Positions 6,448 to 35,297 are shown, numbered from the stretch's first letter. The stretch is DNA of 64,000 nt from Candidatus Anstonellaceae archaeon (GCA_038891035.1 JAWAEW010000002.1:22476-86475), one strand, 5' to 3'. Notes: generated by a model from the sequence alone, not told the origin. Program-made: numbers and translations.

Positions 6448-7485
6448 TTATGCAAGCGCCCCGACAAAACCACCTATAACTGTTTTACAGATATAGAAGA
6501 TGAAAAGAGCAGCAAGTGCAAGTGGTGGAAAATATTTTAGTCCAAAAAGTAATTTCCCCTCCGCAATTACTCCTACTAAAATAGAAGTCAATATTGCTGT
6601 TCCTACAATGATCACTATGGTAAGATCATCGATAAATTTGATGTCAAGCTTAACCTTTGGCGTGGAAAAGCCACCTATCATGCTTTGGCTGGCACCAGTG
6701 CCGATATTAGACTGTATTTTGGTGAAAACTGCAAGAAATTGAGAAGAAATTGCAAGAAGCAGTGGCAATCCAAAAACCAATATGAAAACTATAAAAATTG
6801 CATAAGTCTTGGTATTGACAATCATTTGCTTTCGCAGTTCTTCTGTTTCTCTAATTTCTTCTGCCGAAGTCTCAAGTAGATAGGCCAGCTTTCCACCTGA
6901 GCGCAAGCCGTTCTCAAAAAACAAAATTGTCCGCCGCAGGATTGAACTGTCGATTGTAGCTGTTAGTTGGCGCAATGCATCTGCAAATGATTCGCTTCCT
7001 AAAGATAAGGATGAAACATAAAGGATTTCTGACTGCAGGGGTCCAAATTCAGGCCTTGCCGCGGCTTGAAATGCAGCAAAAGGGGTCATGCCAGAGCGCA
7101 TGTTTGCTGCCACCATCAAAAGAAAATCCGGAAGGACGGCGTCCACTCTTTGAGTTCTTTCAGTTATAAGATAATAAAGGTGCATATAGATCAAGATTGC
7201 AGCAGCCAAAGCAAAGAGAATGCCCAGCCCAAAGCTTATGACAAGTTTCCCAGCCAAGGTCGGCGGATTAAGGATGGGGTATGCAGATAGGTCAAAAAAA
7301 CGGAAAATGCTGACTGGAAGAAGAGCACCAACAATTCCAAATAAGATAACTATAAGAAGACGGGAGCCAAGCCAAAGTTCTGGATTTGTTTCTATGCCAG
7401 CATAAGCAAGAAGCTGCGAGATTTTGTCTTTTGGGCGTGGCTTGAAAAATGTTGAAAATCGTTTTTCAACTAAATATTTTTTCAT
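6448..7485 (-). CDS. type II secretion/type IV pilus platform protein, TadC/FlaJ-like (T2SSF domain)
   Basis: 345 aa polytopic membrane protein with a cytoplasmic T2SSF-like segment (LPDFLLMVAANMRSGMTPFAAFQAA...). Confidence 0.6.
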   Translation of the reverse strand: MKKYLVEKRFSTFFKPRPKDKISQLLAYAGIETNPELWLGSRLLIVILFGIVGALLPVSIFRFFDLSAYPILNPPTLAGKLVISFGLGILFALAAAILIYMHLYYLITERTQRVDAVLPDFLLMVAANMRSGMTPFAAFQAAARPEFGPLQSEILYVSSLSLGSESFADALRQLTATIDSSILRRTILFFENGLRSGGKLAYLLETSAEEIRETEELRKQMIVNTKTYAIFIVFILVFGLPLLLAISSQFLAVFTKIQSNIGTGASQSMIGGFSTPKVKLDIKFIDDLTIVIIVGTAILTSILVGVIAEGKLLFGLKYFPPLALAALFIFYICKTVIGGFVGALA

Positions 7486-7492
7486 AGAACCA

Positions 7493-8407
7493 CTAATCGC
7501 TAAACAGGCTTGGTCTTTTCATTTTGACGTAAGCAATGATGGCCATCTGACCTAAAAATCCAATTCCAACAACAGCTGAAAGAACTTCTGGTGTAACACC
7601 AAGCATCCCAAATACTGAAAAAATTACGAGGACGGTTGTTCCTATAGTAGGGAGTACGGCTGCAACCATCAGATATATCAGAATTATGAAGTTGAGTTCT
7701 GCATTGAATGATTTGAAAAGCGAAAACTGGTAGTCTACCAGCAATTTGACTATGCTTCGAAGGGTAGAGGACAGATTAGCGCCTGCTCTAATTGCAGTAA
7801 CGAGTTGCCATGAGACCTTTTTGAGATAGACCGACTGAGTCTTAATGGCCATATTTTCCAGTTCTTCTAAAAGAGGACTTCCTCCCCTAACGTTATTTGC
7901 AACTTCTTTAAATGCCGGCCCTACGTACTTGTAGTTTGAGTTTCCGATGTTTTCTATCGCATTGAAAAGCGGTATTCCAGAATTCACCTGTATTAGCATA
8001 TCACGCATGACAAAAATAAGCTCATGGTCTATCTTTGCTGCAATGCTCCTTGCAATAAGGCGAGGGAAAGCCAAATGAAGCAGAAGGAAAAAAAGAAAAC
8101 TGATTGCAAAAGAAAGGAATATTATAAGACCTTTAACAGGTGAAGGAAGAGTAGGGCTCAGCGTTGCAATTACGCCCACGACAATAGATATAAGTGCGGA
8201 CCAAATTGCGGCTGAAACTGCCGCAACTCCACAATAATATTCTGCCGGAAATTCAAGACCTATAGATCTTAGGTCATATCTTATTGATGGGTAAAATGCA
8301 AGGACTTTTAAGCCGATACCTTTCAGTCGCGCTCCTAAAGTGGGGACTGATGAGATTGGTAAAAGCATGACCGGAATGCGAACCGGCTGAGTTGTCATAA
8401 GAATCAC
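7493..8407 (-). CDS. type IV pilus platform protein, TadB/FlaJ-like (T2SSF domain)
   Basis: 304 aa membrane protein with a T2SSF-like segment (IFVMRDMLIQVNSGIPLFNAIENIG...). Separate gene, 8 nt from the downstream paralog. Confidence 0.6.
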   Translation of the reverse strand: MILMTTQPVRIPVMLLPISSVPTLGARLKGIGLKVLAFYPSIRYDLRSIGLEFPAEYYCGVAAVSAAIWSALISIVVGVIATLSPTLPSPVKGLIIFLSFAISFLFFLLLHLAFPRLIARSIAAKIDHELIFVMRDMLIQVNSGIPLFNAIENIGNSNYKYVGPAFKEVANNVRGGSPLLEELENMAIKTQSVYLKKVSWQLVTAIRAGANLSSTLRSIVKLLVDYQFSLFKSFNAELNFIILIYLMVAAVLPTIGTTVLVIFSVFGMLGVTPEVLSAVVGIGFLGQMAIIAYVKMKRPSLFSD

Positions 8408-8409
8408 GG

Positions 8410-10140
8410 CTATTTTTTACTTCCAATAGCTCGCTTGGCTATTTCTAAGATTTCATTTGGCTTGCTGTAATAAAGAGACATTATTCGGCCTACTGACTCC
8501 ATATCAGAAAGCTTGTTCTCAATCATCCATCTTATAATAGTGGCCCTGTTCTTTATATCTTGGTATATTTCCTCTTTGGTCATGCCTGTATGAAGGTTAA
8601 TTTCCTTGAGGTATTTGTTTGGCTCGCCTACCATTTCAAATGTATCAGTGCGTGGGCGCCATCTGTAAATTACATTGGTTGTTATTTCCTCGTCTTTGGC
8701 ACCTGGAACTATTTCGCAAATTTCCAAGGTTCTCCTAACATTCTTCCTCCTATCACGATATTGGACTACAATAAGGTTGACTGCTTCGAGGTCAGATGGA
8801 GGAAGGCTGATTGGGGGGCTAGTAAGCCTTCTTATAGCCTGCATCCCCGTATCAGCGTGCAAAGTTGCTGCAACAGAGTGGCCTGTGTGCATAGCCTCGA
8901 ACAATACTTCAGCTTCTCTTTGCCTTCTCATTTCACCAAGCAAGATTCTATCTGGCCGCATACGAAGCGAGGTAACCATCAAATCAAGCATTGTAACTTC
9001 ACCTAAGCCTTCTGCATTTGGATTTCGAGTTAAAAGAGGTACCCAGTTCCACTGGTAATGTGGCAGCATAAGCTCTCTGGTATCCTCTATTGTGACAATA
9101 CGCTGATTTGGAGGAATAAATGATGCCAGTGCGTTCAAAGCTGTAGTTTTTCCGGATGCTGTGCCGCCTGCAACTAAGATGTTCATTTCATAATGTATTG
9201 CCTGCCACAGCATTCCTGCCATTTCCGGTGTCATGGAGTAGCCTGGTTCACCCACAAGATTTACAATTGTCCATGGATTTCTTGCAAAGCGCCTAATTGT
9301 AATTGTGTTCCCATGTGCAGAAATCGGTGCAAGAGTAGAGCAAACTCTATCTCCGGTTTCAAGCCTAGCATCCAGTATTGGTGTTAAGTTTGCAATTTGT
9401 CTCCCAACTCGGCGTGCAATTTGGGAAGAATAATTGAAGATAGATTCTTCGTCTGGCATGTAAATATTTGACTTAAGCCAGCCAAACTTGCGATGATATA
9501 CTCCAATTGGGGTTTTTGAATTGTTAATAATAATTTCCTCAAGCCAGTCATCGTGGTTGATAATCTCTATCTCTCCTAACCCAAACAACTTATGCAAAAG
9601 CATTCCAACCAGAACTTCATCAACCTCCTTTCCGAGGTGGAACTGCCGAATATAATTGGTTATCGTAAGCTTGAATTCCTCGCGTGCTTTGGCTGCTTTT
9701 TCAATATCTGAAACATCAGACTGTGCACCGGCAGGTATTGCCCGCAAAAGTTCGTCTTTTATGAGGTCCAGAAAAATCTTGGTTGCAGTACCAAACTCAA
9801 CTAAGGTCAGGATATAGTGCTTTTCTCTTTCAGTATCTAATATCATTACACTTGCTGGCACTCCATCTGCTGAAAACATATAGCTGGCCAACACCTTTCC
9901 CTTTGTTGCACCGACTTCGGGCTTTGGTGGCTCAGCCGGCAGGATCCTGAAAGATACTGTTGGCTTTTCAGTTATGCTTAATGGGTAATGCAAATCTAAG
10001 ACCCCGCCCTTTTCAAGCACTGCACAGATAAGCTCAACGGTTTCTACCGGCATGTGTAGATATTTTGAGAGAATTTCAACACTGATATTTTTTTTGCGCT
10101 GTGCAAGTGAAACAAGCTGGTCTATCTTTGTCTCAAACAT
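8410..10140 (-). CDS. type IV pilus/archaellum-family assembly ATPase (FlaI/TadA/VirB11 superfamily)
   Basis: Walker A VAGGTASGKTT, Asp box IVTIEDTRE, His box, and an N-terminal extension, as in archaeal FlaI-like ATPases. Confidence 0.85.
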   Translation of the reverse strand: MFETKIDQLVSLAQRKKNISVEILSKYLHMPVETVELICAVLEKGGVLDLHYPLSITEKPTVSFRILPAEPPKPEVGATKGKVLASYMFSADGVPASVMILDTEREKHYILTLVEFGTATKIFLDLIKDELLRAIPAGAQSDVSDIEKAAKAREEFKLTITNYIRQFHLGKEVDEVLVGMLLHKLFGLGEIEIINHDDWLEEIIINNSKTPIGVYHRKFGWLKSNIYMPDEESIFNYSSQIARRVGRQIANLTPILDARLETGDRVCSTLAPISAHGNTITIRRFARNPWTIVNLVGEPGYSMTPEMAGMLWQAIHYEMNILVAGGTASGKTTALNALASFIPPNQRIVTIEDTRELMLPHYQWNWVPLLTRNPNAEGLGEVTMLDLMVTSLRMRPDRILLGEMRRQREAEVLFEAMHTGHSVAATLHADTGMQAIRRLTSPPISLPPSDLEAVNLIVVQYRDRRKNVRRTLEICEIVPGAKDEEITTNVIYRWRPRTDTFEMVGEPNKYLKEINLHTGMTKEEIYQDIKNRATIIRWMIENKLSDMESVGRIMSLYYSKPNEILEIAKRAIGSKK

Positions 10141-10436
10141 GAAGCAAAATCGCTTTTGAATTTATTAAACTTTCTTTCCTAGCAAAAATGAGGATACTTG
10201 ATGTTGCAGTGTTCTACGGGTGAAGTCGATTTTTGCGCAAAAGCAAAAAGAGCAGTGGTTGATTGAAAACTAGGCGCCGAGCTCGTATTTGCGCTTGTAA
10301 AGCTTAGCTCGCCGATAGTTTATGATTTTCATAACAGGAAATTACCTTTGCTTCATTTCAGAGGCGATTTGCAGCATACACTCAAAAGGCTTGAAAGCGA
10401 TATAGATTTAAGATAATCGGTGCAGATATAAACATC

Positions 10437-11696
10437 ATGAGAATGACTGCAAAAGCTACATTAGCTGGGATTGCAATTGCGGCATTAATTTCATTTCCTT
10501 CATCAAAATTGAACTCGCAAATAAATGAGAATCAGATAAAAAAGAAGTTAGCAGACAAAGTTCTTGTTGAAAATTCTTCAGCTTATACTACAGAAAAATA
10601 CAAAATCTACAAAGAAGGTGTAAATTTCGTACTTTTTCCACCAGATGTAAAAGTTGAAAAAATAGAACTAAAGGAAAGAAAAGATGAAAACAAAATAACT
10701 GCCTCCGACAATACAACTGGTGGAATGAGAATTATTTATGGGGATGCTTTTTGTCAAGCATTCGTACAAAAGATTATAGAAGATTCTTTAACTGGAGGAG
10801 GGGTAGGATGGATTTCGAAAATATACCCCCTTGATTCTTTTCCTTCACACAGAAACGGAATAAACCTATTTCCTCAAGGAAGGATCATAAAAAAGACCTA
10901 TCCAAGAATTCTAATGCCCCCAAATACGGATGGCCACTATATAGCTACTCGGACTTACTATATCGAAAATATCTGGCCTCCATACCATGACAGTGTAAAT
11001 GCATATTATCAGCAAATAGCATTAAACTTGATCTTTCAGCACGGGGATAGGCCAAGTGTTTTCTTCTTTGCAGGAGATAGGGATACTACTAAGAAGGCTA
11101 CTAAAATGATTATAATAAGTATAACGCAATTTGACTCTAATGGTGTTCAGATTGTGCCGCCGGATCCAAGAGTAAGAGGCCCCCCTGTAGCGGCTGCAGA
11201 AGTAGTAAGAGATGATCACATAAATGGAACGGGAGATTTTCGGGAGATAATAATGGCTATGGGGACACTGACAGATATGCAGATTTTGGCCGATGGTAAA
11301 ATTCTCGAAGAACAGGAATTTCAAATGTTTGGAGGGATGAATGAAGATACTCTCAATTCTTTTTTTGTTCGTCCTCCGATCAAAGCAAAAGAATTCGTGA
11401 TGGGAGTAGAGGAGAAATTTGAGCTGGTGAAAGAATATAGGCTTTCACAAAACTATCCAAATCCATTCAATTCACAGACAACAATTGAGTTTTCTTTACT
11501 CAGACCAGGACGCGTAGTGATTAGAGTGTATGATATGATTGGGAGGAGAATAGCAGAGATTGTTAATGAAGAATTAAAAGATGGGACTTATCGCGTCAAC
11601 TGGAAACCACAAGCAAGTATTTCAAGTGGTACGTACATCTATGAATTGAGCAGTGATGGCTATATCGACAGGAGAAAAATGATATATATAAAATAA
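10437..11696 (+). CDS. secreted protein with C-terminal T9SS-type (Por secretion tail) sorting domain
   Basis: N-terminal signal peptide. The C-terminal 80 aa, LSQNYPNPFNSQTTIEFSL...RVYDMIGRRIAEIVNEELKDGTYRVNWK...SGTYIYEL, matches the TIGR04183/Por_Secre_tail consensus closely. Confidence 0.6.
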   Translation: MRMTAKATLAGIAIAALISFPSSKLNSQINENQIKKKLADKVLVENSSAYTTEKYKIYKEGVNFVLFPPDVKVEKIELKERKDENKITASDNTTGGMRIIYGDAFCQAFVQKIIEDSLTGGGVGWISKIYPLDSFPSHRNGINLFPQGRIIKKTYPRILMPPNTDGHYIATRTYYIENIWPPYHDSVNAYYQQIALNLIFQHGDRPSVFFFAGDRDTTKKATKMIIISITQFDSNGVQIVPPDPRVRGPPVAAAEVVRDDHINGTGDFREIIMAMGTLTDMQILADGKILEEQEFQMFGGMNEDTLNSFFVRPPIKAKEFVMGVEEKFELVKEYRLSQNYPNPFNSQTTIEFSLLRPGRVVIRVYDMIGRRIAEIVNEELKDGTYRVNWKPQASISSGTYIYELSSDGYIDRRKMIYIK

Positions 11697-11709
11697 ATTT
11701 TTTCTTTAT

Positions 11710-14700
11710 TTAGGAGTTCAGTGTTGTAATGCTAACAGTAAAACCTTGGTTGTACAATGCACGTATTTCATCTTCTGAGAGTGCTCTTTTGAATATTTGG
11801 ACTTCATCGATTATGCCTTCATAAGGCTTATTGAGTGAAGGAGAATTTCCTATAATTAGTCTTGGGTAAGTCTGGCCCAGATCTCCTGAAACATCACCAG
11901 TTGCATAAAGTACTCCGTTAATGTAAATAAAGCCGACCCCATCTTTTCTGCTTACTGTGATATGGGTCCACTCGTCTGTGGCTAATTCGATGGGCGATGA
12001 TATTACTTTATTTGCTGCAATAAAGTTCAGATAACCATCTGACAACTCAAGGGCGAAGCCAGAATTCTGAATTTGGTTACTTATGATTTGGCTGGAGATT
12101 ACTGATTTGGGCTTAACCCATAAAGAAACTGTGAAATCATCTCTGCCCTGGAGCACAGGCGATGGGACCGAAAGATGGGAGAATAGAGATGTGAAGTTGT
12201 ATGCTCCACCTATTTTACCAAATGGAGTCCAGTTTGCTGAAACATTTGCATGAAGCAGAAGAGGAGAGTAATCAACCGATATTCCTTCTACTTCTCTATA
12301 ATCGAATGGCAATGAAAGTAGCGCATCAGGAAGCTGCCTTTTTAGGCGAAGCTTGGCATTATAATTTGCAGTAATATTGCTAAATGAAGCGGATGGCTTA
12401 TAAAAGACATCAAGGTCAAGGCTGCACTTGTCTTGATATAAGCCTTTGTAGTGATTTTCGATTTCCCGTTCAGATAGAGCTCTCTTATAGAACCTTATTT
12501 CATCAATCAGTCCTCTGAAACCGTTGCTTCCTGAACTATCAGATGCACCTATAAAGAATGGGGACGATGAGTTTATCCTCAAAAGGCTGAACTGACCTGA
12601 TGCAACCGATTTATCATCAAGATAGATGTTGTATTCGCCTAATCTTCTAACAGAAACTGACACCATATGCCAATTCCCATCTGATAAATCGAGTAGATGA
12701 CTTATCTGTGAAGACTGGCCACTTCCATTTGCACTATAAAATGAGATGTTGAGGAAATTAGCAGGATTCAAAAACCAATCAATCCCCTGTGCTGCCCCAA
12801 ATTCCTGTCCTAGCTGATAAAATAGCCTTGCAAAGCTTCCTTGGCCGGTATAAGGCCTTATCCATACAGACATAGTAAAATCATTGATCTCTGTAACTGA
12901 AACATCGTCTAGATAGACTACTTGGTTGTTTAGAGGTGTATAAAACCGAAGTTCAATGACTGCATTTTGAAGTGTAGAAAATGGTTGTGTGATCCTTTCA
13001 AAAGTAGTGCTTAGCTGCTTTGTGATAAATATGTCTGCACCGGGATTCAATGAATTCCACTGCCCGGAAGGCGCCAAGTACATTTGGTTTTGCACATCAA
13101 CAATTGCATATCTAATCGCATCATTTTGAAGCTCGCCTCTCGCCCAAAACTCAAGCAAATAATTCCTGTTTCCTTTCAGTGCTGAATAAAGAGCTGAACT
13201 GTAAATATACGACGAGGGATCGCTAGAGTAGATTTTAACTGAAGTCGAGCCTGACTTTACTATGTTGTGCTCTGGCTCAAATATGCCATTTCCTTGCTTT
13301 ATCCAATTGTTGAAAAGGAAGGATTGGCTGCCTACACCTGGAGGGATAATGCAGTACTTTACAGATCCGCTTGTTCTTGTTACATTGCACACTGCATTTG
13401 GATCACAGCAGGGATGAACATCGTCACAGCGAGAATTGGTTGGGAAGCAGGTTGTGCATCGCCCATAATCTTGTATTCCCTCAAAAAAGAAGGGAAGTTT
13501 TTTTATCTTGAAAAAGTAGTCGCGAGAATAGGTTTGCTGCTCTTGTTGTGCAACTGTATTTACAAGGTCACAGAAAAGCCCCTCGCAGCATTGCGTGTCA
13601 TTAGTGCAGAGGGCACCTTGCTGACCGCATGTAGGAAGAGGAGGCGCACATCTGAAGGTTTGTTCCCCGTCAAAAAGACACCTGTTTGAGCAGCATTCTG
13701 AGTGATTCCTACAGGTATGGTTGAGAGGAAGGCAGTCCACACACTTTGAGAAATTAGCAGAGGTGCTCAGTAGATCGCAAAGCCCGGAGCAACATTGACT
13801 GTTTTCAGTGCAATTGGTGGTGCTGTTCGTTTGAATGCAAACTGAGCATATCTTTTGGGATGAGCCTGCGGGTGCTGCACAAATACTGCATGTCTGCGGG
13901 CAGTCTGAAGAAATGGTGCAGCTCTGGTTGCATCCTATTCCGCATCGTGGTTGGCTTTCTTCATCTATAAAGCATCTACCACTGCAACATTCGTTGCTGG
14001 TTCCATCTTGGCAAGAGGCAAGTAACTGCCCATTTTGAAGGCAACAGATTCCGTTTAAACAGATTGAGGGGGGGCAACAAGGGATTTTGTTGTCTCCTGA
14101 ACACGGCTGGGAAGCATTTGCGCAATTTAGGTTTGTTAATTCAGCTACATTAGTAGGATTAGAACGATCAGACTTGGCAACAAGATTAGGATTGTTTTTG
14201 GCTTCTGCTTGTATGTATAATTGAACGCTTGTACCATTTTCAAACGTCGAAGTGTTCAATGGTTCTTGCTTACGATACAAAAACAAAATTGGTATTATGT
14301 TGCCCGGCCTCTGCGCAACAAAGACATATGAAATATTAATATATGGTGTGCTGTCAGGACAATTTTGTATGCAGTATACGTTGGACCCTCGAATAACAGT
14401 TGGTGTGGGTGAAATAATTGGAGTGGGTGGTTTTTTAGGTTTGCAAACTCCATTCTCGCATCTTAATCCTATCGTTTTATCGCTATCACAGCAATCAGAA
14501 TCCTTAGTACATTGTTGCCCTCCTTGTGAGCATGCAGAACACCTTCCATTAATGCAAACTGAATTCGAACAGCAATCAGAATCTCTGAGACAGCCATAAG
14601 TCCCACGTGGCCAGCAAGGAACACACTTGCCATCTCTCATCATATAGAACTTAACTGAGCTTGAAGACGGGATTGCAGACCATGGTTGGCGCTCCTCTTC

Positions 14701-15468
14701 ACCTAAAAGGCATTTGCCGGAACAGCATTCAGAATGATAAGAACAGTTTTGCCCATTAGGAATGCATGAACATATGCCATTTATGCACATGGAACTTATA
14801 CAGCAATCAGCATCTGAGCTGCAAGGCCCGTATCCTCTTGGCCAGCATGAAACACATGTACCATTGAGGGGAGTTTCGACGAGCTTTGCAAGCCCAGAAA
14901 AAAGATTTTCTGATGATAAAAACGCCCCACCATCATTGTTGGTGCGTATAAGACATTTGGAAGAGCAGCAATCATTATTTGATTGACAGACTGCACCTTG
15001 TCCTTTGCATGTGGATGTGCTATCCCAGTGACAACCCACTGCTACACATACAGTTTCGTTATAAATGGAAGTGCATGGTAGAGATGGCCCACTGCTTACA
15101 TCATCACATGGAAATGCTGTAAAAGCATTAAATCTGCAATACCCTCCTGCAATATTGCATGCACCAGCCGGATTGTGACTTTTAGAGGCACAGTCGGCTT
15201 CATTTAGAGAAGAACAGAGAGTTGGAGCTGTACCGCTTGCACATGTACAATTGTTTGTCACTAGCTCATATCTCAGATTGCAATATCCTCGCAATTCAAA
15301 TTCGTAGCAAACCGAGGGATAATCGATCGGACCGCATCCGTCGGATGTACACCATGGGTGATTTAGGGAAGTACAGCTTACGTTAGGAGAATTTTGGTTT
15401 TGCGGCACGCAGCCAGCAAAAATGGCTGAAGAAAGCAATCCAAACAGCAACAAAGACAACATTCTCAT
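11710..15468 (-). CDS. 1252-aa surface protein: lipobox signal, repeated knottin-like 6-Cys modules, Pro/Thr linker, two C-terminal LamG_3 (ConA-like lectin) domains
   Basis: MRMLSLLLFGLLSSAIFAGC lipobox. At least 6 repeats with the pattern C-x6-C-x5-CC-x4-C-x4-C (e.g. CWPRGTYGCLRDSDCCSNSVCINGRC). Two LamG_3 signature motifs (IDEIRFYKRALSEREI and IDEVQIFKRALSEDEI). Confidence 0.7.
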   Translation of the reverse strand: MRMLSLLLFGLLSSAIFAGCVPQNQNSPNVSCTSLNHPWCTSDGCGPIDYPSVCYEFELRGYCNLRYELVTNNCTCASGTAPTLCSSLNEADCASKSHNPAGACNIAGGYCRFNAFTAFPCDDVSSGPSLPCTSIYNETVCVAVGCHWDSTSTCKGQGAVCQSNNDCCSSKCLIRTNNDGGAFLSSENLFSGLAKLVETPLNGTCVSCWPRGYGPCSSDADCCISSMCINGICSCIPNGQNCSYHSECCSGKCLLGEEERQPWSAIPSSSSVKFYMMRDGKCVPCWPRGTYGCLRDSDCCSNSVCINGRCSACSQGGQQCTKDSDCCDSDKTIGLRCENGVCKPKKPPTPIISPTPTVIRGSNVYCIQNCPDSTPYINISYVFVAQRPGNIIPILFLYRKQEPLNTSTFENGTSVQLYIQAEAKNNPNLVAKSDRSNPTNVAELTNLNCANASQPCSGDNKIPCCPPSICLNGICCLQNGQLLASCQDGTSNECCSGRCFIDEESQPRCGIGCNQSCTISSDCPQTCSICAAPAGSSQKICSVCIQTNSTTNCTENSQCCSGLCDLLSTSANFSKCVDCLPLNHTCRNHSECCSNRCLFDGEQTFRCAPPLPTCGQQGALCTNDTQCCEGLFCDLVNTVAQQEQQTYSRDYFFKIKKLPFFFEGIQDYGRCTTCFPTNSRCDDVHPCCDPNAVCNVTRTSGSVKYCIIPPGVGSQSFLFNNWIKQGNGIFEPEHNIVKSGSTSVKIYSSDPSSYIYSSALYSALKGNRNYLLEFWARGELQNDAIRYAIVDVQNQMYLAPSGQWNSLNPGADIFITKQLSTTFERITQPFSTLQNAVIELRFYTPLNNQVVYLDDVSVTEINDFTMSVWIRPYTGQGSFARLFYQLGQEFGAAQGIDWFLNPANFLNISFYSANGSGQSSQISHLLDLSDGNWHMVSVSVRRLGEYNIYLDDKSVASGQFSLLRINSSSPFFIGASDSSGSNGFRGLIDEIRFYKRALSEREIENHYKGLYQDKCSLDLDVFYKPSASFSNITANYNAKLRLKRQLPDALLSLPFDYREVEGISVDYSPLLLHANVSANWTPFGKIGGAYNFTSLFSHLSVPSPVLQGRDDFTVSLWVKPKSVISSQIISNQIQNSGFALELSDGYLNFIAANKVISSPIELATDEWTHITVSRKDGVGFIYINGVLYATGDVSGDLGQTYPRLIIGNSPSLNKPYEGIIDEVQIFKRALSEDEIRALYNQGFTVSITTLNS

Positions 15469-15497
15469 ATAGATTCCTCTATAAAACTTCCCTTTAT

Positions 15498-16991
15498 CTA
15501 TCCGCTAGAGCCACCCACACTATAATATTGTTCAAACCCGCCGTTTAATCCTGAAGATTGCTTAAGTGAAACGGCATCATAAATCACGTCGCCGCTTTCT
15601 GCTGCAAAAAACTTCAAAGTAACTTCAGATGATCCAAGTGGAAGCAGGAATTCTTTAGTGATTCGGATAAAGTCAGAGTTGACACCTGTCTCGAATAGAT
15701 GTTCTGATGAATCCCAACTTCCGTCTGCTTGAAGGTATTTTCCCTTGCTTCTGTCAAAGATAGAGTATTTGCCGTTTTGGCCTTGCGAAAGAAACTGGAG
15801 TGTATAAAATGAGTTTTCGGATAAGTAAACATTTTGATAGATATAAAAATCAACACTTGCATAGCCTTGTGGATTGGAGATCTCTGCTGCCCAATTGTTT
15901 TGTATCAAAGCAGGGCCGATGTAAACATCTTCTGGGTAGTTGTTTTCAACCACCCATGAAGGCCAAATGTTTGGAGGAATTCCATTTCTATCTTCAAAAT
16001 CTCCGTTTGAAACAAGCTCTGAGCCTTGCGGAAAGATTATTTCTGTTTCGGTGAGTGAGAAGTTATTTCGGTACATGTATTGATTTCCTGTAAATTCCAT
16101 GCAGCCTTGGCTTTTGCAGGAAAGTTTGAAGAGGGGCGTGTTCTGTCCGCCTCCTACTGTAAAATCAAGGCCATAAAGAGAATAATCACGTACTTTCATA
16201 TTTGAAGCAGGCGAATCAAGCGGAAGTACAAGAGCTCCAGATGGGCTTTTCGTATAAGATATGGAAGTATAATTTCTTGAAAGCAATCCTGAGAAATTAG
16301 AAACAAACAGAAGAATTGTGCCATCAGGATATGAAATTTGCAAGGTTGCAATATGGTTTGACACCGGTGTATTGGTGAATCTTGTTTTTGTGCCGATATT
16401 ATCTACATATTTGAGATTATAATAGAGGTTGTCAGAACCTGCCTGACCACCAGAAACAGAAAAGGCACCGATGTTGGTTGCACTTTTTGAGCAGTTTACG
16501 GTGGCGTATATTGAGATGGGCTGCCAACCCAGAGGATGGTAATAAATTATCACATCGTTTGGGCCATCGTTGCTATAAAACAGACCTCCTGACTCTGAAA
16601 TATTCATAATAAATGCATTGCTTCCGTTTATCCAAGAAACCAAAATAGCTTCAACTCCGCTATTTCTCAGATTTTCAGGTAAGGTGGCTGCATACTCATA
16701 GAGATTTGCAATTGGATGGCCTTCTTTTTTGAATGGGAGGGTAGATGAAACTGTTAAATGTATAGAAGATTGGGTTTTTCTAATATCTGCCTTTGTCCCA
16801 AGTACAGCAGCAAGGTCAGAAGATACTTGTTCTTCTATCCTTGCAATTTCAGATGGCAAGAGTTCAGTAAATGCGGTTCTTTGGCTTTTTCGCCACTCCT
16901 GCGAAAATAGAGCCATTCCGATAAGCGTAATTGACAGAATTAGTATTGATATGGTAAAAGTGAAACCTTTCGGAAGCTTTCTTTTGGTCAT
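15498..16991 (-). CDS. pilin-like protein with class III-type signal peptide and CBM4_9-like carbohydrate-binding module
   Basis: N-terminus KRKLPKG|FTFTISILILSITLIGMALF fits the [KR]G-hydrophobic prepilin pattern. NGDFE and NGGFE motifs with an aromatic-rich beta region resemble CBM_4_9. Confidence 0.45.
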   Translation of the reverse strand: MTKRKLPKGFTFTISILILSITLIGMALFSQEWRKSQRTAFTELLPSEIARIEEQVSSDLAAVLGTKADIRKTQSSIHLTVSSTLPFKKEGHPIANLYEYAATLPENLRNSGVEAILVSWINGSNAFIMNISESGGLFYSNDGPNDVIIYYHPLGWQPISIYATVNCSKSATNIGAFSVSGGQAGSDNLYYNLKYVDNIGTKTRFTNTPVSNHIATLQISYPDGTILLFVSNFSGLLSRNYTSISYTKSPSGALVLPLDSPASNMKVRDYSLYGLDFTVGGGQNTPLFKLSCKSQGCMEFTGNQYMYRNNFSLTETEIIFPQGSELVSNGDFEDRNGIPPNIWPSWVVENNYPEDVYIGPALIQNNWAAEISNPQGYASVDFYIYQNVYLSENSFYTLQFLSQGQNGKYSIFDRSKGKYLQADGSWDSSEHLFETGVNSDFIRITKEFLLPLGSSEVTLKFFAAESGDVIYDAVSLKQSSGLNGGFEQYYSVGGSSG

Positions 16992-17049
16992 TGAACCTCA
17001 ACCCTTAAGATCGCAAAAAAAGCTTAATAAATTTCCTATGAATGCCATT

Positions 17050-18090
17050 TTATTTTCCACGATACCAGCCACGAATGATAACAAAACCATAATCATTTTG
17101 AAGCTGATTGGTATTTTTTGCAAATGGGACAGTTAGAGATTGGATCTCTCCACCTCCATACAGGCATCCAGGTCTGTTGACCATGTATAAAATATTTTCA
17201 GGATTGCTGTAAAGAAGCTGCACTTCTTGATGAGAAAGAACACGGTCGTAAAGGCGCACTTCATCCAAAATGCTGTCGCTGTTGAATCCTATTTGGAGAG
17301 GGTTGTTATTACTATTTGGTGCCATGGCAAAATCATCAGTGTCTGCCGCAGTTCCATCTACATAAAGAGTAGCCACTCCTTCTATATCAAAAGTTGCAAC
17401 GATGTGATGCCAGTTGCCATCAGCAATATATGGTCCCTCCAACCATGATTCATCAGATGAAAATATGTGGAAAAAGACGTTTCCTTCTTCAGTAATGCCA
17501 ACAGAATATTTTTCCTCAAATGAAAATAATAATTGTTGATTGCCAATATTTTGACTTTTAACCCATAGAGAGACTGAAAAACTTTCTTGCTCAAAAAGAG
17601 GAGAAAACTGAACTGTTCCGTATGTTGTAGAAGAGAAATGAATGGCCCCGCCCGCTTTCCCATTTTGGACAAATATAGGGGATCCGATTAAAATCCCAAA
17701 AAGTCTGTTTGGAGTGGAGTCATAGATGATCGAACCTGCCACTTCATCAAGCTTCCAATATCCTACAAGACCATCCGCAAGCTGATTGCTAAAACCAACC
17801 ACCTCTATGCAAATTGAAGGAGAAGTCGCACTTAACACCTCTCTTATGGAAGCCGTGGTCTGTGTTAGGTCTTGTGGAGGAGAGAGTAGGCCCTTTTTTG
17901 AAAGCACTGTTGCAACATCTTGTAAGTAAGTTCTCAAAAGCTGGGTTTTAAAGTCTGAATCTTGAGTGTTGCCATAGAAAGTAAAGGCAATAAAGGTGGC
18001 CAGTATAATCATGAATATTGAGATTGCTGCATCAAGACTGAGGAATACTCCCCTTAGCCTCGAGTTAGAGATTTTCATTTTTTCTTCCAT
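17050..18090 (-). CDS. pilin-like protein with C-terminal LamG_3 lectin domain
   Basis: N-terminus SRLRG|VFLSLDAAISIFMIILATF is pilin-like. C-terminal motif ILDEVRLYDRVLSHQEVQLLY is the LamG_3 signature. Confidence 0.55.
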   Translation of the reverse strand: MEEKMKISNSRLRGVFLSLDAAISIFMIILATFIAFTFYGNTQDSDFKTQLLRTYLQDVATVLSKKGLLSPPQDLTQTTASIREVLSATSPSICIEVVGFSNQLADGLVGYWKLDEVAGSIIYDSTPNRLFGILIGSPIFVQNGKAGGAIHFSSTTYGTVQFSPLFEQESFSVSLWVKSQNIGNQQLLFSFEEKYSVGITEEGNVFFHIFSSDESWLEGPYIADGNWHHIVATFDIEGVATLYVDGTAADTDDFAMAPNSNNNPLQIGFNSDSILDEVRLYDRVLSHQEVQLLYSNPENILYMVNRPGCLYGGGEIQSLTVPFAKNTNQLQNDYGFVIIRGWYRGK

Positions 18091-18596
18091 ATCTGAACCC
18101 GAACTCTGACAATCTTATCATCCAAAATTGCAAGCCTTTCAGCACTGGATATCTTGGAATTAGTATAATCAGGTTCTAACCCGAAAGAATAAAGCAAGCT
18201 GCCCGAATCTGCATCGATTACACTCAGATAAATATCGAATGGCCCTGCACCCATCTTTTCCTTTACCAAATCATAATATCCGTTCATGGGCGACAGTGCG
18301 GAAAGTTTAGATGGCGAAAGAACATTTCGTGATGAAGCAAAACCGAAAGCATTGGCTTTGAGAAAATCGTCATTTTCCCAATCAGAAGGAACTCCCGAAG
18401 AAAGCACAAACATATCTGATATCCCTACCAAAATAGTTTGCATATCATGCATCGATTGCTCTTCATAATATGAATTTGAAACTAAATTCCATGAAAAAAG
18501 AAAAATTGCAAGAGCTGCAACAAATATTGCAGACGATATTACAAGCTCTGTAGAAAGCATTTGGCCAAGTGTTGAAGAAAATTTGGATTTACCCAT
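18075..18596 (-). CDS. minor pilin-like protein
   Basis: 173 aa. N-terminus LGQMLSTELVISSAIFVAALAIF has G-Q-x-x-S-x-E followed by a hydrophobic helix. Confidence 0.4.
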   Translation of the reverse strand: MGKSKFSSTLGQMLSTELVISSAIFVAALAIFLFSWNLVSNSYYEEQSMHDMQTILVGISDMFVLSSGVPSDWENDDFLKANAFGFASSRNVLSPSKLSALSPMNGYYDLVKEKMGAGPFDIYLSVIDADSGSLLYSFGLEPDYTNSKISSAERLAILDDKIVRVRVQIWKKK

Positions 18597-18601
18597 ACTG
18601 C

Positions 18602-18994
18602 TTACGCCTCGTATATGTAAATGACATTATCCCTATTTTCTATTATTATTTGGGTGTTGAGTGGAACAGAAGAGGACTGAGTCATGTTTGTAGTCAGTGG
18701 AACGGAATAAAGGCCATTTGCTGAATATCGAACAGTTACAAATTGTCCTTTAACCGAAATATCAACTATATTTTCACTCGCTGTAGTTGAAAGGAAAATC
18801 TTTGTAGAATTTCCTCCGGCCGCAGCGCGGTTTATCGCAAGCGCCAATTTGTTTGCCACTGACCCAGCCTCGAGCAATTGCTTTTGTCTTTCCCATAAGG
18901 CCTGCAGATTCTGGTTTGCAATATAGATAATAAAAAGGATAAACGCCATTACTGCTGCAATCACAACCAATTCAACTGAAAGCTGTCCTTTCAT
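18602..18994 (-). CDS. archaeal type IV pilin (class III signal peptide)
   Basis: MKGQLSVELVVIAAVMAFILFIIY is the canonical KG|Q-x-S-x-E prepilin motif. 130 aa. Confidence 0.6.
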   Translation of the reverse strand: MKGQLSVELVVIAAVMAFILFIIYIANQNLQALWERQKQLLEAGSVANKLALAINRAAAGGNSTKIFLSTTASENIVDISVKGQFVTVRYSANGLYSVPLTTNMTQSSSVPLNTQIIIENRDNVIYIYEA

Positions 18995-18998
18995 ATTT

Positions 18999-19784
18999 TC
19001 AACCTATTTCAAAGCTTACAGGAACAATAAAAAACTCCTCCCTGCATTCTTGCACGCATGATGGATGGCGTAGTGAAGTATTTATTAATAGATTCCAATT
19101 ATAGACGCCTCCCGCATCAACTGAAGGTTGGAAGATGATACTAACGATTGCTCTGCTTCCAGCAGTTTGAAAAGATGAAGGAAAAATTGCAAGAGGAACT
19201 TTTTGATATTCATTGAAAGCTTGGATATTAATCTCCAAGTTATCAGAAGATGAAGGGATTATTTCCAGCGAAGCTGAAGAAGGTTGCCCTTTTTTGCCTT
19301 TATGATAAATTATGGAAGGCTGGATTTCAACCAGGCTTGCCCCAATAGATACATAAGAACCAAAGGAAATAACTTTGATTTGATAAGTTCCAGGCGAAGA
19401 AGGGAATACTCCAGAAAGAGGTGCTAGAGTGCTTGCAGAATAGTCTGAGCCAGCTACATGAAGGTTGATAATATTGTTTGAAAGCACCGAAAAATCTAGC
19501 GGTTTTCCAATATAGCTTTTTTTGAGAGAAAGATTCGCAGAAGGAGGGATTGTAATACTGACAATTTTAGTAGCTCCTTTTCCTTCTGCGTAAACACTAT
19601 CTGCCGCATTGGCAAGTGTTTGCACTGTCTCTTTTGCCAACTTGGCATCTTTCTGGACGCTAACATCAAACAAAAGATTCGAAGATAGGACCGTAAAAGT
19701 CAAAAGAATGAGAAGAAGAATGCCAAGAACCGAGATCAGCTCTGCAGACGCTTGGGCAGAGAGGACTTGGAAAAATCTATGCAT
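18999..19784 (-). CDS. pilin-like beta-rich protein, paralog of 19821-20576
   Basis: N-terminus LSAQASAELISVLGILLLIL is pilin-like. The body aligns with the neighbour (VYAEGKGATKIVSITIPP...KSYIGKP vs VYAQGAGASVIVEIFLPP...KTYIGKP). Confidence 0.45.
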   Translation of the reverse strand: MHRFFQVLSAQASAELISVLGILLLILLTFTVLSSNLLFDVSVQKDAKLAKETVQTLANAADSVYAEGKGATKIVSITIPPSANLSLKKSYIGKPLDFSVLSNNIINLHVAGSDYSASTLAPLSGVFPSSPGTYQIKVISFGSYVSIGASLVEIQPSIIYHKGKKGQPSSASLEIIPSSSDNLEINIQAFNEYQKVPLAIFPSSFQTAGSRAIVSIIFQPSVDAGGVYNWNLLINTSLRHPSCVQECREEFFIVPVSFEIG

Positions 19785-19820
19785 AGAGTAAGAATACAGA
19801 TTTTATTTTAAATTCTTTCA

Positions 19821-20576
19821 TTAGCGCACTTCTACAGTAACTGGAACCGTAAATGATTGGTTTCCTATTTCTGAGCTCACAAAAATTTCCATATTCAAAT
19901 TATAAATTCCCTCTGCGTTATTATTTGCGGCTATTGACACCAAAAACTGAGTGGGTTCGACCTGAAGCTCGCTGGAAGAGGGAGAAACGTTGATGGATAT
20001 ATCTGAGGGCACCCACGGTAAGTAAATAGATGCAAATGCTAAAGAAGAAATCTTCTTTTCCAGAACTATTGATTCGTTCCTGATTTCTCCCTTTGCCATG
20101 CTAACAAATACTGATGGTCTGCTGATAGAGGCGATATATGGCACAATGAACACTTGCCCTCCTTTTGAAAACAAGTACATTTTGTGGGAGCCGCTTTTAG
20201 TCGGAAAAGAACCGGCCAGATTTGCCTGTGTAGATGCAAAGATATCGCTTTGTCCTACTCGCATATTAATGGTCTTTGGGAGTATGAAGGATGAGACATT
20301 TGCAGGCTTGCCTATATATGTTTTGTTAGGATTAAAATCGATTGTCGGAGGTAGAAAAATTTCAACTATTACTGATGCTCCAGCTCCTTGCGCATAAACC
20401 GTATCTGCTGCAATTGCAAGTCTTCTTACTGAATCATAGGCAAGTTTTTCGTTCTTTTCAATTGAAGCTTCGGATAAAAATGAAAGAGAAAGAGACATGA
20501 ATATGAGAACAACTAAAAGTGAAATTCCCATTATAGTGATAAGTTCTGTTGCTACTTGGCCTATTTTGCTATGCAT
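19821..20576 (-). CDS. pilin-like beta-rich protein, paralog of 18999-19784; first gene of the pilus operon
   Basis: N-terminus KIGQVATELITIMGISLLVV is G-Q-x-x-T-E plus a hydrophobic helix. Paralogy as described for the neighbour. Confidence 0.45.
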   Translation of the reverse strand: MHSKIGQVATELITIMGISLLVVLIFMSLSLSFLSEASIEKNEKLAYDSVRRLAIAADTVYAQGAGASVIVEIFLPPTIDFNPNKTYIGKPANVSSFILPKTINMRVGQSDIFASTQANLAGSFPTKSGSHKMYLFSKGGQVFIVPYIASISRPSVFVSMAKGEIRNESIVLEKKISSLAFASIYLPWVPSDISINVSPSSSELQVEPTQFLVSIAANNNAEGIYNLNMEIFVSSEIGNQSFTVPVTVEVR

Positions 20577-20627
20577 GAGGTATTAGCGAAGCTGTCCTTT
20601 AAATAAATTGTAGCATATTTTAACTTC
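20577..20627. promoter_or_regulatory. 51-bp AT-rich divergent promoter region (TATA-like TTTAAATAAATT) between pilus operon and DNA ligase
   Basis: TTTAAATA lies about 25 nt upstream of the lig ATG, which implies a leaderless transcript. Its reverse complement supplies a TATA-like element about 30 nt upstream of the pilin ATG. Confidence 0.35.
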
Positions 20628-22370
20628 ATGTTATTTTCGCAAGTTGCAGAAATTTTTTCAGAAATCGAACGCGAGCCTTCAAGGCTTGAGATGTCTGCAA
20701 AGATAGCAAATCTTCTTGCAAAGTGCGAGCAAGATGAAATAAGACCACTCATATATATTATGGAGGGGAGTATAGCTCCCCCATACGAAGGATTGGATAT
20801 TGGCATAGGTGAAAAATTTGCCATTCGAGCTATATCTCAAGTAAGTGGGCAGGACCAAAAGATTGTGGAAGGATATTTCAAAAAACTTGGGGACGTGGGC
20901 AGTGCAGCAGAAGAAGTGCTAAAGAGAAAAAAACAAACAAGCTTAGGATTCACACCGAATACTATCCAGAAGGTCTACCAATCCTTTCTGAAAATTGCCA
21001 GGCTTTTTGGACCAGGGTCGCAGGAAGCAAAAATCTCAGTTCTTTCTGAGCTGCTAAATGGGGCTACGCCACTTGAGGCCCGCTACCTTGTCAGGTTTTG
21101 CCTTGGAAAATTGCGGCTTGGAATTGGGGATCCGACAATAATTGATGCCCTTTCGATGCTGAAAAAAGGCAGCAAAGAAGACAAGGATATGATTGAACGT
21201 GCATTCAATTTATGCTCGGATATGGGAGAGGTAGCCCAAGCTTATTTGGCAGGAAAAGATTTGTCAAAATTTACTCCTACCCCTGGCAAACCCATCAGAC
21301 CTGCACTTGCTGAAAGACTCTCTTCGGCTGAGGAGATATTAGAAAAAATGGGTGGGAAATGTGCAGTTGAAGCAAAGTATGATGGGTTGAGAATGCAGGT
21401 CCACGTATATGACAAGAAAGTTGAAATTTTTTCCCGCAGACTCGAAAAAATGACTGAGATGTTCCCTGAGATTACAGAGGCTGCAAAGGATCTGAAAATC
21501 CAACAAATAATATTTGAAGGTGAGGCTCTTGCATACAGCAAAAAGGAAAAAAGGTACATGTCATTTCAAGAGACAATTCAGCGGAAGAGAAAATACGGCG
21601 TAGATATGATGGCTAAAGAATTCCCTTTGCAACTTTTTGTTTTTGATGTTTTATATATAGATGGAAAGGACATGACACTTCAACCGTATAAGGAAAGAAG
21701 GATGAAGCTGGAGCGAATCTTTTCAAAATCAACGGTTTTGGTTCCTGCCCAGCAAATAATAGTTGAAAGCAAAAAGCAGCTGGAAGAATATTTCCAAAAA
21801 TGCGTGCTTGAAGGACTAGAGGGGGTCATAGCAAAGGATCTGGAGCAACCGTATATTGCAGGTGCCAGAAAATTTGCTTGGATAAAGCTCAAGAAGTCTT
21901 ATGGTGAGATGGTAGATACTATTGATGCAATAATAGTTGGCTATTACTTAGGCAAAGGGCAGAGGAAGGAATTCGAATTTGGTGGGCTGCTGGCAGCTGT
22001 ATTGAATGCTGAAAGCGGCAATCTTGAAACTATAGCAAAAATTGGAAGCGGATTTTCAGAGGAAGAAATGAAAAACTTGGAGAGCATGCTTAGCAAGATC
22101 AGAATAAAACAAAAGCCACCAGAAGTTATTTCAGAACTGGAGCCAGATTTCTGGGTTGAACCCAAATATGTGGTGACAGTTGCCGCAGATGAGATAACTC
22201 TTTCTCCTGTACACACATGCGGAAAAGAAGAAAATCCAGAGGCAAAAGGATATGCACTCAGATTCCCAAGAATGATAAGCATTAGGCAAGACAAAGGGCC
22301 TGATGAAGCAACTACTACCCAAGAAATTCTAAGAATGTATAAGATGCAGAAAAAAAGGGACCTTAATTAG
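20628..22370 (+). CDS. lig: ATP-dependent DNA ligase
   Basis: 580 aa with the KYDG adenylation motif (EAKYDGLRMQVH) and OB-fold C-terminus. Archaeal Lig size. Confidence 0.9.
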   Translation: MLFSQVAEIFSEIEREPSRLEMSAKIANLLAKCEQDEIRPLIYIMEGSIAPPYEGLDIGIGEKFAIRAISQVSGQDQKIVEGYFKKLGDVGSAAEEVLKRKKQTSLGFTPNTIQKVYQSFLKIARLFGPGSQEAKISVLSELLNGATPLEARYLVRFCLGKLRLGIGDPTIIDALSMLKKGSKEDKDMIERAFNLCSDMGEVAQAYLAGKDLSKFTPTPGKPIRPALAERLSSAEEILEKMGGKCAVEAKYDGLRMQVHVYDKKVEIFSRRLEKMTEMFPEITEAAKDLKIQQIIFEGEALAYSKKEKRYMSFQETIQRKRKYGVDMMAKEFPLQLFVFDVLYIDGKDMTLQPYKERRMKLERIFSKSTVLVPAQQIIVESKKQLEEYFQKCVLEGLEGVIAKDLEQPYIAGARKFAWIKLKKSYGEMVDTIDAIIVGYYLGKGQRKEFEFGGLLAAVLNAESGNLETIAKIGSGFSEEEMKNLESMLSKIRIKQKPPEVISELEPDFWVEPKYVVTVAADEITLSPVHTCGKEENPEAKGYALRFPRMISIRQDKGPDEATTTQEILRMYKMQKKRDLN

Positions 22371-35102: not shown

Positions 35103-35183
35103 TGGATTCACCTTGCTAAGCGTTCCTTGCCAAGCATTCTTTCGATTAAGGTTTAAAACAATATGCCCGACAAGAAAATATAA

Positions 35184-35269
35184 GCCCCTGTAGCTCATCG
35201 GTAGAGCGGTTGTCTTGTATCCATTCGCAAGAAAACAACAGGTAGCGAGTTCAATTCTCGCCGGGGGCT
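35184..35269 (+). tRNA. tRNA-Thr (anticodon UGU) with ~14-nt intron at 37/38
   Basis: Acceptor GCCCCTG/CGGGGGC, D-arm GCTC-ATCGGTAG-AGC, anticodon stem GTTGT/ACAAC, loop CTTGTA[intron]A, T-arm GCGAG-TTCAATT-CTCGC. Confidence 0.7.
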
Positions 35270-35297
35270 TTCTTTTTGTTGGCTTGATGGCAAAGAA

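Follow-up and report, generated by a model that had tools for sequence, protein, structure and literature searches.

We analysed a 64,000-nucleotide (nt) stretch of DNA from a Candidatus Anstonellaceae archaeon of the Micrarchaeota, in the DPANN (GCA_038891035.1 JAWAEW010000002.1:22476-86475), hereafter called the window, with attention to two of its genes whose products join a pilin-like N-terminus to a lectin-type domain. These are the fifth and the sixth of a run of ten minus-strand genes that goes from position 20576 to position 6448, and they encode a protein of 346 amino acids (aa) with a LamG domain and a protein of 497 aa with a carbohydrate-binding module (CBM), respectively. The other genes of the run encode four further pilin-like proteins, a very large secreted protein of 1252 aa, and the assembly ATPase and the two platform proteins of a type IV filament. 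The features of the run are collected in Table 1. Both lectin genes had been reported in an initial annotation of the window, and we confirmed both open reading frames (ORFs), with the N-termini and the motifs quoted there.

Table 1. Genes and protein features of the type IV filament operon (window positions; a slash marks the end of the leader; AF2, AlphaFold2)
Feature	Position (nt)	Strand	Residues (aa)	Sequence characters or basis
Gene 1, pilin-like protein	19821..20576	minus	251	MHSKIG/QVATEL, then hydrophobic helix
Gene 2, pilin-like protein	18999..19784	minus	261	LSA/QASAEL
Gene 3, pilin-like protein	18602..18994	minus	130	MKG/QLSVEL (+1 Gln, +5 Glu)
Gene 4, pilin-like protein	18075..18596	minus	173	TLG/QMLSTEL
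Gene 5, LamG-bearing pilin-like protein	17050-18090	minus	346	ORF, Pfam, AF2, Foldseek
Gene 5, leader		minus	1-13
Gene 5, invariant G14 and hydrophobic helix	17974-18051	minus		Gly, VFLSLD with invariant Asp at +6, then helix
Gene 5, LamG jelly roll	17206-17784	minus	~103-295
Gene 5, three conserved C-terminal strands	17053-17205	minus	296-346
Gene 6, CBM-bearing pilin-like protein	15498-16991	minus	497	ORF, family profiles, AF2
Gene 6, leader		minus	1-8
Gene 6, invariant G9 and hydrophobic helix	16881-16967	minus		Gly, then FTFTIS and helix
Gene 6, second helix		minus	to ~63
Gene 6, beta-sandwich	16062-16619	minus	~125-310
Gene 6, CBM4_9-like jelly roll	15552-16016	minus	~326-480
Gene 6, invariant tail	15522-15551	minus	481-490	GLNGGFEQYY
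Gene 7, secreted protein	11710..15468	minus	1252	Sec/lipobox-like signal (…AIFAGC)
Gene 7, conserved core, CBM-like and 2x LamG_3	11713-13443	minus	~676-1252
FlaI/VirB11-like type IV filament assembly ATPase	8410..10140	minus		PF00437 T2SSE, E 7e-34
Platform protein 1, TadC/FlaJ-like, polytopic membrane protein	7493..8407	minus		PF00482 T2SSF in the L001 orthologue
Platform protein 2, TadC/FlaJ-like	6448..7485	minus		NCBIfam ArlJ/FlaJ, E 6e-8 (sub-threshold); PF00482 in the L001 orthologue

Lectin folds of the two proteins

The 346-aa protein starts with MEEKMKISNSRLRGVFLSLDAAISIF and carries LDEVRLYDRVLSHQEV at aa 275-290. The fold of its LamG domain is solid. In Pfam, Laminin_G_3 (PF13385) matches aa 155-291 with E 2.3e-24 and 86.7 bits, against a cut-off of 27.6. 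The AlphaFold2 (AF2) model resembles, in Foldseek, the lectin domains of the clostridial-neurotoxin HCN and of the arabinanase AbnA (E ~1e-12 to 4e-14; 4e-14 to 1e-10 over the Foldseek matches as a whole, with a target-normalised TM-score, TMt, of up to 0.75), and the LamG structures matched in the PDB by the profile of the family include 4qvs (E 9e-15). Over the LamG domain, NCBIfam also gives a weak match to TafC, with E 3e-8 and a score of 33 bits where the cut-off is 410.

In the AF2 model of this protein, two helices (aa 19-39 and 44-65) and a third, short one lead to a strand at aa 93-101; the LamG domain (aa ~103-295) comes next, followed by three strands within aa 300-343. The overall confidence is moderate, with a predicted local distance difference test score (pLDDT) of 69 and 72 for the two lectin proteins. 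In all the 11 sequences of the LamG family the residues G14, D20, C94 and C309 are invariant, and C94 and C309 are frequently the only Cys residues of the protein, an invariance that fits a topology in which strands lie on either side of the LamG domain. Judged from the model, the LamG domain appears to be inserted between the first and the second strand of a small alpha/beta head, and the Cys94-Cys309 pair probably ties the two halves of this head together by a disulfide. The mean pairwise identity within the family is 46-55% in the carrier parts against 34% in the LamG domain.

The 497-aa protein starts with MTKRKLPKGFTFTISILIL and carries the motifs SNGDFE (aa 328-333) and LNGGFE (aa 482-487). 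Its AF2 model has two helices (aa 11-41 and 46-63) and, after a stretch of poor prediction, a beta-sandwich, the CBM (pLDDT 80-90 over aa 330-480) and the tail, which is unplaced. The C-terminal domain resembles, in Foldseek, the CBM4-2 structure 2y64 (TMt 0.72), 1gui and the CBM16 structure 2zex, with E ~1e-7, and CBM22 was also matched. The family profile, searched against the PDB, aligns along the full domain with the laminarinase 16A CBM4 (1gui; E 8e-4), and PF02018 (CBM_4_9) is matched by nine of the 15 aligned family members, with a best E of 5.8e-8. In the NCBIfam scan the 497-aa protein had no match of its own. A fold of CBM4_9 type is thus supported at the level of the family and of the predicted structure, and the call is weaker than that of the LamG domain.

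Within the CBM family the mean pairwise identity is 26% in the leader, 67% from G9 to Q37, 36% in the CBM and 83% in the tail GLNGGFExYY. The hydrophobic segment is therefore the best-conserved long stretch of the family, and only the 10-residue C-terminal tail scores higher; in both families, then, the lectin modules are less conserved than their carriers. The 497-aa protein has a fully identical counterpart (100%), annotated as hypothetical, in a Candidatus Anstonellaceae metagenome-assembled genome, and all of its named homologues are from Micrarchaeota.

A separate observation regards the segment YTKSPSG.L.LP.D…DYS…GGG…C..GGC..F.G of the 497-aa protein (aa ~235-320, nt ~16032-16290, minus strand), which looks like the start of LamG_3 domains. 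The same segment (LxLPxD…DYS…GGCxxFxG) is repeated up to 12 times in giant proteins of 2,000-6,700 aa from the representative search (P0073, P0080, P0082, P0083 and others). We considered aa 250-305 as a truncated N-terminal half of a LamG domain and found this unsupported, the hhalign comparison of the CBM and LamG families giving a probability of 4.8%.

Of the domain assignments in the initial annotation, the LamG_3 domain was borne out by Pfam, Foldseek and the PDB profile, and the CBM4_9 module held at the level of family and fold (PF02018 in the relatives, 1gui and the AF2 comparison) and not in Pfam for the protein of the window. The Pfam check that it had proposed returned PF13385 in the 346-aa protein and no family at all in the 497-aa protein, while the check by structure prediction gave jelly rolls in both. 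Two statements on the layout had to be corrected. Precisely, the 346-aa protein does not end with the LamG motif, since ~56 conserved residues, with three predicted strands, follow it; and the lectin domains are not fused directly to the N-terminal helix, as ~90 residues precede the LamG domain and ~300, comprising helices and a beta-sandwich, precede the CBM.

N-terminal segments and conservation of the operon

Both lectin proteins begin with a mostly basic leader and a Gly placed just before a hydrophobic stretch, KRKLPKG/FTFTISILILSITLIGMALF in the 497-aa protein and SRLRG/VFLSLDAAISIFMIILATFIAF in the 346-aa protein. The motif [KR]-G-[FY]-T-F-T-[IL]-S is essentially invariant in ~30 sequences of the CBM family, in which the leader varies from 6 to 38 residues, and all 11 sequences of the LamG family share [RKH]-G-[VI]-[FV]-L-[ST]-L-D. 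For both proteins AF2 predicts, with low to moderate confidence, a helix-break-helix of ~50 residues. As the hydrophobic segments are among the most conserved parts of the proteins, they are best read as retained and constrained helices, unlike a Sec signal, which is discarded. On the sequence, a Gly followed by such a helix is the class III pattern in both lectin proteins.

To place these N-termini among those of the whole window, a relaxed class-III-type pattern was run on its 112 ORFs of at least 100 aa. Seven of them matched; six are the six consecutive genes 1-6 of the operon, which is more than chance, and the seventh is a 508-aa ORF lying elsewhere (48272-49798). A strict FlaFind-like pattern fails at the expected sites of both lectin proteins because of Phe residues, and the 130-aa protein alone passes at its expected site.

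The four remaining pilin-like proteins, of G/Q type, form a coherent group. In hhalign their N-terminal profiles are similar to one another (probability 64-99.8%), including that of the 130-aa protein with those of genes 1, 2 and 4 (81-95%). Genes 1 and 2 are paralogous (34% identity, E 2e-34), and their orthologues keep [GA]/Q..[AT]E. The 130-aa protein, which is the smallest of the six, is a candidate for the filament subunit. The 173-aa family consists of 72 clusters, all annotated as hypothetical and of Micrarchaeota type only. With the 173-aa protein the N-terminal profile of the LamG family aligns in register, although weakly (hhalign E 5e-4, probability 32%). The 497-aa protein is the sole one of the six without an acidic residue at +5/+6.

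The gaps between consecutive genes of the operon range from -16 to 58 nt, except between the 1252-aa gene and the ATPase gene, where an opposite-strand gene is located. The operon is flanked by a DNA ligase gene, divergent and 51 nt from gene 1, and by a threonyl-tRNA synthetase (ThrRS) gene (window 6448-22370), and the same flanks were found in all the Micrarchaeota loci examined. The order ligase, 251-aa, 261-aa, 130-aa, 173-aa, LamG, CBM, 1252-aa, ATPase, TadC, TadC, ThrRS is kept in the related loci L002-L008 and L010, and in at least eight Micrarchaeota genomes the order of the operon is conserved. It is kept though the identity of the orthologues falls to 29-38% over seven further Micrarchaeota loci, with that of the CBM protein down to 34%; platform protein 1 stays at 58-82% across loci. 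This conservation argues that the lectin genes are core parts of a type IV filament operon and not bystanders. A horizontal transfer of the operon was considered and rejected, given a GC content of 0.39-0.43, like that of the rest of the window, and the ligase and ThrRS flanks in all the relatives.

The claim of pilin-like N-termini, also made in the initial annotation, stands for the invariant Gly, the conserved hydrophobic helix and the linkage to a pilus operon, and fails for the class III and pilin hidden Markov models (HMMs) and for the +1 Gln. The N-termini are other than ordinary cleaved Sec signals, as the segment with 67% identity after the invariant Gly indicates. On the whole, the interpretation given there is reasonable and partly supported. 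The label 'pilin-like' is hence supported by motif, conservation and context rather than by demonstrated homology.

The opposite-strand gene amid the operon (10437-11696, plus strand) encodes a protein of 419 aa whose N-terminus is Sec-like and which matches PF18962 (Por_Secre_tail), the C-terminal sorting domain of the bacterial type IX secretion system (T9SS), with 28.9 bits against a cut-off of 27 and E 1.4e-6. Its homologues are in the same place in L002, elsewhere in L003 and in two copies in L004. We know of no T9SS in archaea. Farther away in the window, a tRNA-Thr(UGU) at 35183-35270 (plus strand) spans 88 nt, more than is usual in class I tRNAs, and probably contains an intron.

Variable cargo and fusion with the 1252-aa protein

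The 1252-aa protein, encoded immediately after the CBM protein, is composed of two different halves. The first contains 89 Cys residues in aa 1-700, with weak Dickkopf_N-like matches, and is variable or missing in the relatives, whereas the core with one CBM-like and two LamG_3 domains is conserved. PF13385 matches twice in Pfam (E 1.8e-50), and the CBM of this core is a paralogue of that of the 497-aa protein (30% identity, E 4e-6).

On the constant N-terminal module of the 497-aa protein the cargo varies from relative to relative. The commonest form, of ~500 aa, bears the CBM alone; other forms have two CBMs (P0019), an extra insert (P0016) or two LamG domains without a CBM (P0017, P0020, P0081). 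In a further group of 900-1086 aa (P0067, P0068, P0069, P0074, P0075) the N-terminal module is followed by two CBMs and two LamG domains, and the C-terminal halves of these fusions are 30-35% identical to the core of the 1252-aa protein (E 1e-55 to 1e-87). In the loci L010 and L011 (8001-11225 in each; 10 contigs) a single gene of 1074 aa, composed of the GYTFT N-terminal module, two CBMs and two LamG domains, takes the place of genes 6 and 7; the operon is otherwise the same, with one copy only of the 251/261-aa pair. Such fusion or fission of genes 6 and 7 argues that the CBM protein and the 1252-aa protein act on the same structure.

In the fused relatives NGGFEYY of the tail is the first strand of the second CBM, and the fusion or fission would account for the GLNGGFExYY tail of the unfused form. 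We also considered a 'split CBM', in which the strand of the tail would complete the CBM of the 1252-aa protein. As the latter keeps a degenerate counterpart of its own, GSVKYCII (AGGFEFF in L008), this is not supported as stated.

Interpretation and comparison with known systems

We favour, with about even confidence, the reading that the two lectin proteins serve as minor subunits of modular build in a type IV filament of Micrarchaeota, probably located in a low-copy priming or tip complex together with the four G/Q proteins. The layout of the operon fits an Epd-like 'system 1' filament, the fit being one of architecture. Each protein would consist of a carrier (a class-III-signal-like N-terminus, in which a variable and basic leader precedes the invariant Gly and ~22 hydrophobic residues open the ~50-residue helix-break-helix, and a small alpha/beta moiety) and of a cargo of lectin-type beta-jelly-roll modules, the CBM4_9-like module of the 497-aa protein being carried on a beta-sandwich spacer. 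The leaders would be removed by an A24 prepilin peptidase encoded elsewhere; another micrarchaeon, Mia14, encodes one A24 peptidase (PMC5498576). The machine formed by the ATPase and the platform proteins would then pull the helices out of the membrane, and the two bulky lectin subunits would join the four G/Q pilin-like proteins in the priming or tip complex, with the CBM protein, which has no acidic +5/+6 residue, in the outermost position. The Sec-secreted protein with its CBM-LamG-LamG core may be displayed on the same structure, like PilY1, and the assembly may bind glycans of the envelope of another cell or environmental polymers. A host cell envelope as the target, as suggested in the initial annotation, is speculation, and the host dependence is itself uncertain, since the Anstonellales are DPANN archaea with an unusually broad anabolic capacity (PMC8561730).

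A bolder form of this reading, which we regard as very improbable, has a dedicated multi-lectin tip complex that sets the partner or host specificity of Micrarchaeota. In this form the LamG pilin, the CBM pilin and the 1252-aa protein would stand on the four G/Q minor pilins, with GLNGGFExYY docking the 1252-aa protein by beta-strand exchange, and gene fission would have produced, in archaea, a lectin-based parallel to the presentation of PilY1.

Several results weigh against the favoured reading. Some concern the N-termini. No class III signal or pilin model (PF04021, PF07963/IPR012902, NCBIfam) matches either lectin protein, whether the first 60 residues are scanned (E up to 10) or the whole sequence (E up to 0.1). 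PF04021 (Class_IIIsignal) reaches E 0.02-0.13 even for the 130-aa family of canonical-looking operon mates (E 0.13, sub-threshold, for the 130-aa protein itself); that it barely detects the G/QxSxE proteins encoded at 18602-20576 means that current models under-call class III signals in Micrarchaeota. The N-terminal profile of the CBM family is unlike those of the other five operon N-termini (hhalign probability <2%). Both lectin proteins are without the +1 Gln borne by the four operon mates, so that an EppA-like peptidase, which is Gln-dependent (PMC4371748), would not cut them, and a crude motif search of GxGD type found no prepilin peptidase gene in the 64-kb window. Others concern the folds. 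The profiles of the CBM, LamG, 130-aa and 173-aa families, searched against the PDB, found no pilin structure and only lectin domains; AF2 predicts the first 120 residues of the 497-aa protein with low confidence, and the pilin-like head of the lectin proteins is a reading of the predicted topology and not a validated fold. The 497-aa protein has no Pfam match at E up to 1, and so lies below the PF02018 threshold, and the proposed binding of carbohydrates is deduced from the predicted folds only.

We considered two other explanations, neither of them likely. In the first, the machine would build a short pseudopilus or cell-surface array in place of a long adhesive pilus. It would keep lectin proteins with class III signals at the envelope, where they would trap glycans, soluble or polymeric, as nutrients; the Sulfolobus BasEF bindosome does this for sugar-binding proteins. 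Archaeal class III proteins with large ligand-binding domains are known to use the type IV filament machinery in this way (PMC4371748; bioRxiv 10.64898/2026.04.22.720090), and the metabolism of the Anstonellales, more complete than that of most DPANN (PMC8561730), makes scavenging plausible. The 261-aa protein and the ATPase also match the bindosome models BasB (E 0.0046) and BasE (E 5.6e-45) in NCBIfam, weakly and far below the cut-offs. Yet the ATPase is closer to FlaI (292 bits, below the cut-off of 550 bits) than to BasE (154 bits), and no transporter genes are in the operon at any locus examined, whereas the cargo of the bindosome consists of substrate-binding proteins of ABC transporters encoded beside the transporters themselves. 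Here the LamG and CBM modules are encoded inside the operon of the machinery, and such modules bind polymers rather than pass monomers to a transporter.

The second explanation, about equally improbable, takes the two proteins as uncleaved bitopic signal-anchors, namely accessory proteins that span the pseudoperiplasm and hold the machine to the glycosylated S-layer of the cell itself, like ArlF/ArlG, without being filament subunits. It would account for cleavage-site residues that differ from those of the four G/Q mates, for a CBM N-terminus without profile similarity to the mates and for the absence of class III HMM matches, and the conserved transmembrane helix could equally mirror contacts with the platform proteins. 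Proteins of ArlF/ArlG type, with pilin-like hydrophobic N-termini and a beta-sandwich, are system-defining accessories (bioRxiv 10.64898/2026.04.22.720090). A plain anchor would not, on the other hand, be expected to have an invariant Gly whatever the length of the leader, with G-F-T at -1/+1/+2 as in bacterial prepilins, and shuffled lectin modules, together with a fusion to a large multi-lectin adhesin, are more in keeping with adhesins that face outwards than with a structural stator; the lectin modules also evolve faster than the carrier. A third explanation, the least probable of them, is that these are ordinary Sec-exported surface lectins, secreted or membrane-anchored, that merely adjoin pilus genes with no functional tie. 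In its favour is the general expansion of LamG proteins in the genomes of DPANN (PMC5498576), but the strict gene order with short gaps or overlaps at 29-38% orthologue identity, the high conservation of the N-terminal hydrophobic segment, unlike Sec h-regions, and the quite different look of the true Sec/lipobox-type signal of the 1252-aa neighbour all speak against it.

The operon is of interest for the study of DPANN archaea, whose recognition of and attachment to partner cells are little understood and whose genomes are full of unannotated surface proteins. It offers a concrete and conserved candidate adhesin, with three lectin-module proteins, one type IV filament machine and a cargo shuffled between lineages. 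It also extends to archaea the idea of the 'modular pilin', which has been catalogued for bacteria only, and it shows class-III-like N-termini in archaea that current HMMs miss entirely. The idea of lectin-bearing pilin-like proteins is not itself new and would not surprise a specialist. We found no description in the papers that we read of a LamG domain inserted in the head with a conserved Cys pair, of such cargo shuffling, or of the fission or fusion with a secreted multi-lectin protein.

In the comparison with known systems, the closest functional likeness is with the bacterial modular pilins, where a short pilin-type carrier with a class III signal bears a bulky jelly roll of lectin type. 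PF13385 itself occurs as such a module, its combination with a pilin ranking among the 15 commonest architectures in bacteria (PMC8179133). As in those systems, the genes lie beside the machinery and several small minor pilins, and the cargo varies on a constant carrier. [quoted passage not shown] For PilC the function, the processing and the tip location come from experiment, whereas here we infer them. The proteins of the window further differ from the bacterial ones in being archaeal and without the IPR012902/N_methyl motif, in the lack of Glu5 in the CBM protein and in the LamG domain, apparently inserted within the head rather than appended. The survey of modular pilins (Raynaud et al. 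2021, PMC8179133) was keyed on the bacterial IPR012902 motif and thus did not cover archaea; by that motif the lectin proteins are formally no members, and they would work like the modular pilins described there.

As regards the machinery, system 1 has one ATPase, a platform split in two genes and many class III proteins (Makarova 2016, PMC4858521; bioRxiv 10.64898/2026.04.22.720090), and it has been reported in some DPANN (PMC4858521; PMC4371748; bioRxiv 10.64898/2026.04.22.720090). The operon resembles it in its one ATPase, two platform genes and many class-III-like proteins. The Epd pilins of M. maripaludis are processed at KG/QV, KG/QL and similar sites (PMC4371748), and the four operon mates, with +1 Gln and +5/+6 Glu, resemble them, while the lectin proteins have no +1 Gln. 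No sequence link to methanogen Epd proteins was found, as the search with the 173-aa family profile returned only sequences of Micrarchaeota type, and, unlike the Epd clusters, the operon has no gene for a peptidase of EppA type. Two platform genes, as in this operon, can also be present in the DPANN subsystem 4A.

The tip minor (pseudo)pilin GspK/PilX is a large subunit in which position 5 is not acidic and the pilin beta-sheet is interrupted by a big inserted domain. The two lectin proteins divide these characters, as the CBM protein has no acidic residue at +5/+6 and the LamG protein appears to have a big inserted domain. A likeness to PilY1, an analogy also drawn in PMC4858521 and PMC8179133, lies in a very large secreted adhesin that would be presented by a complex of minor pilins, and in pilins as in PilY1 the N- or C-terminal modules can be exchanged. 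The similarity does not extend to the sequence or to a demonstrated structural homology with GspK, PilX or PilY1; the insert is a LamG lectin and not the alpha-domain of GspK, and the 1252-aa protein has CBM and LamG modules where PilY1 has a beta-propeller.

Among archaeal systems, the bindosome shares with the operon large ligand-binding proteins with a pilin-type N-terminus and a dedicated pair of ATPase and platform. TafC of the Tat-fimbriae of Haloarcula hispanica is likewise an archaeal filament subunit with a laminin-G-like domain, which has been proposed as an adhesin and placed by modelling at the end of the filament (PMC11821415), but it is Tat-exported in a fibre built by donor-strand exchange, which is not a type IV filament, and the similarity is confined to the LamG domain. 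Golyshina et al. reported in the micrarchaeon Mia14 an expansion of LamG proteins, with LamG genes adjoining type IV pilus loci (PMC5498576); that LamG locus was reported on a genomic island, whereas the operon described here is at a stable chromosomal position. Overall, we consider that the two proteins are probably an archaeal version of the lectin-carrying modular pilins of bacteria rather than a new kind of system.

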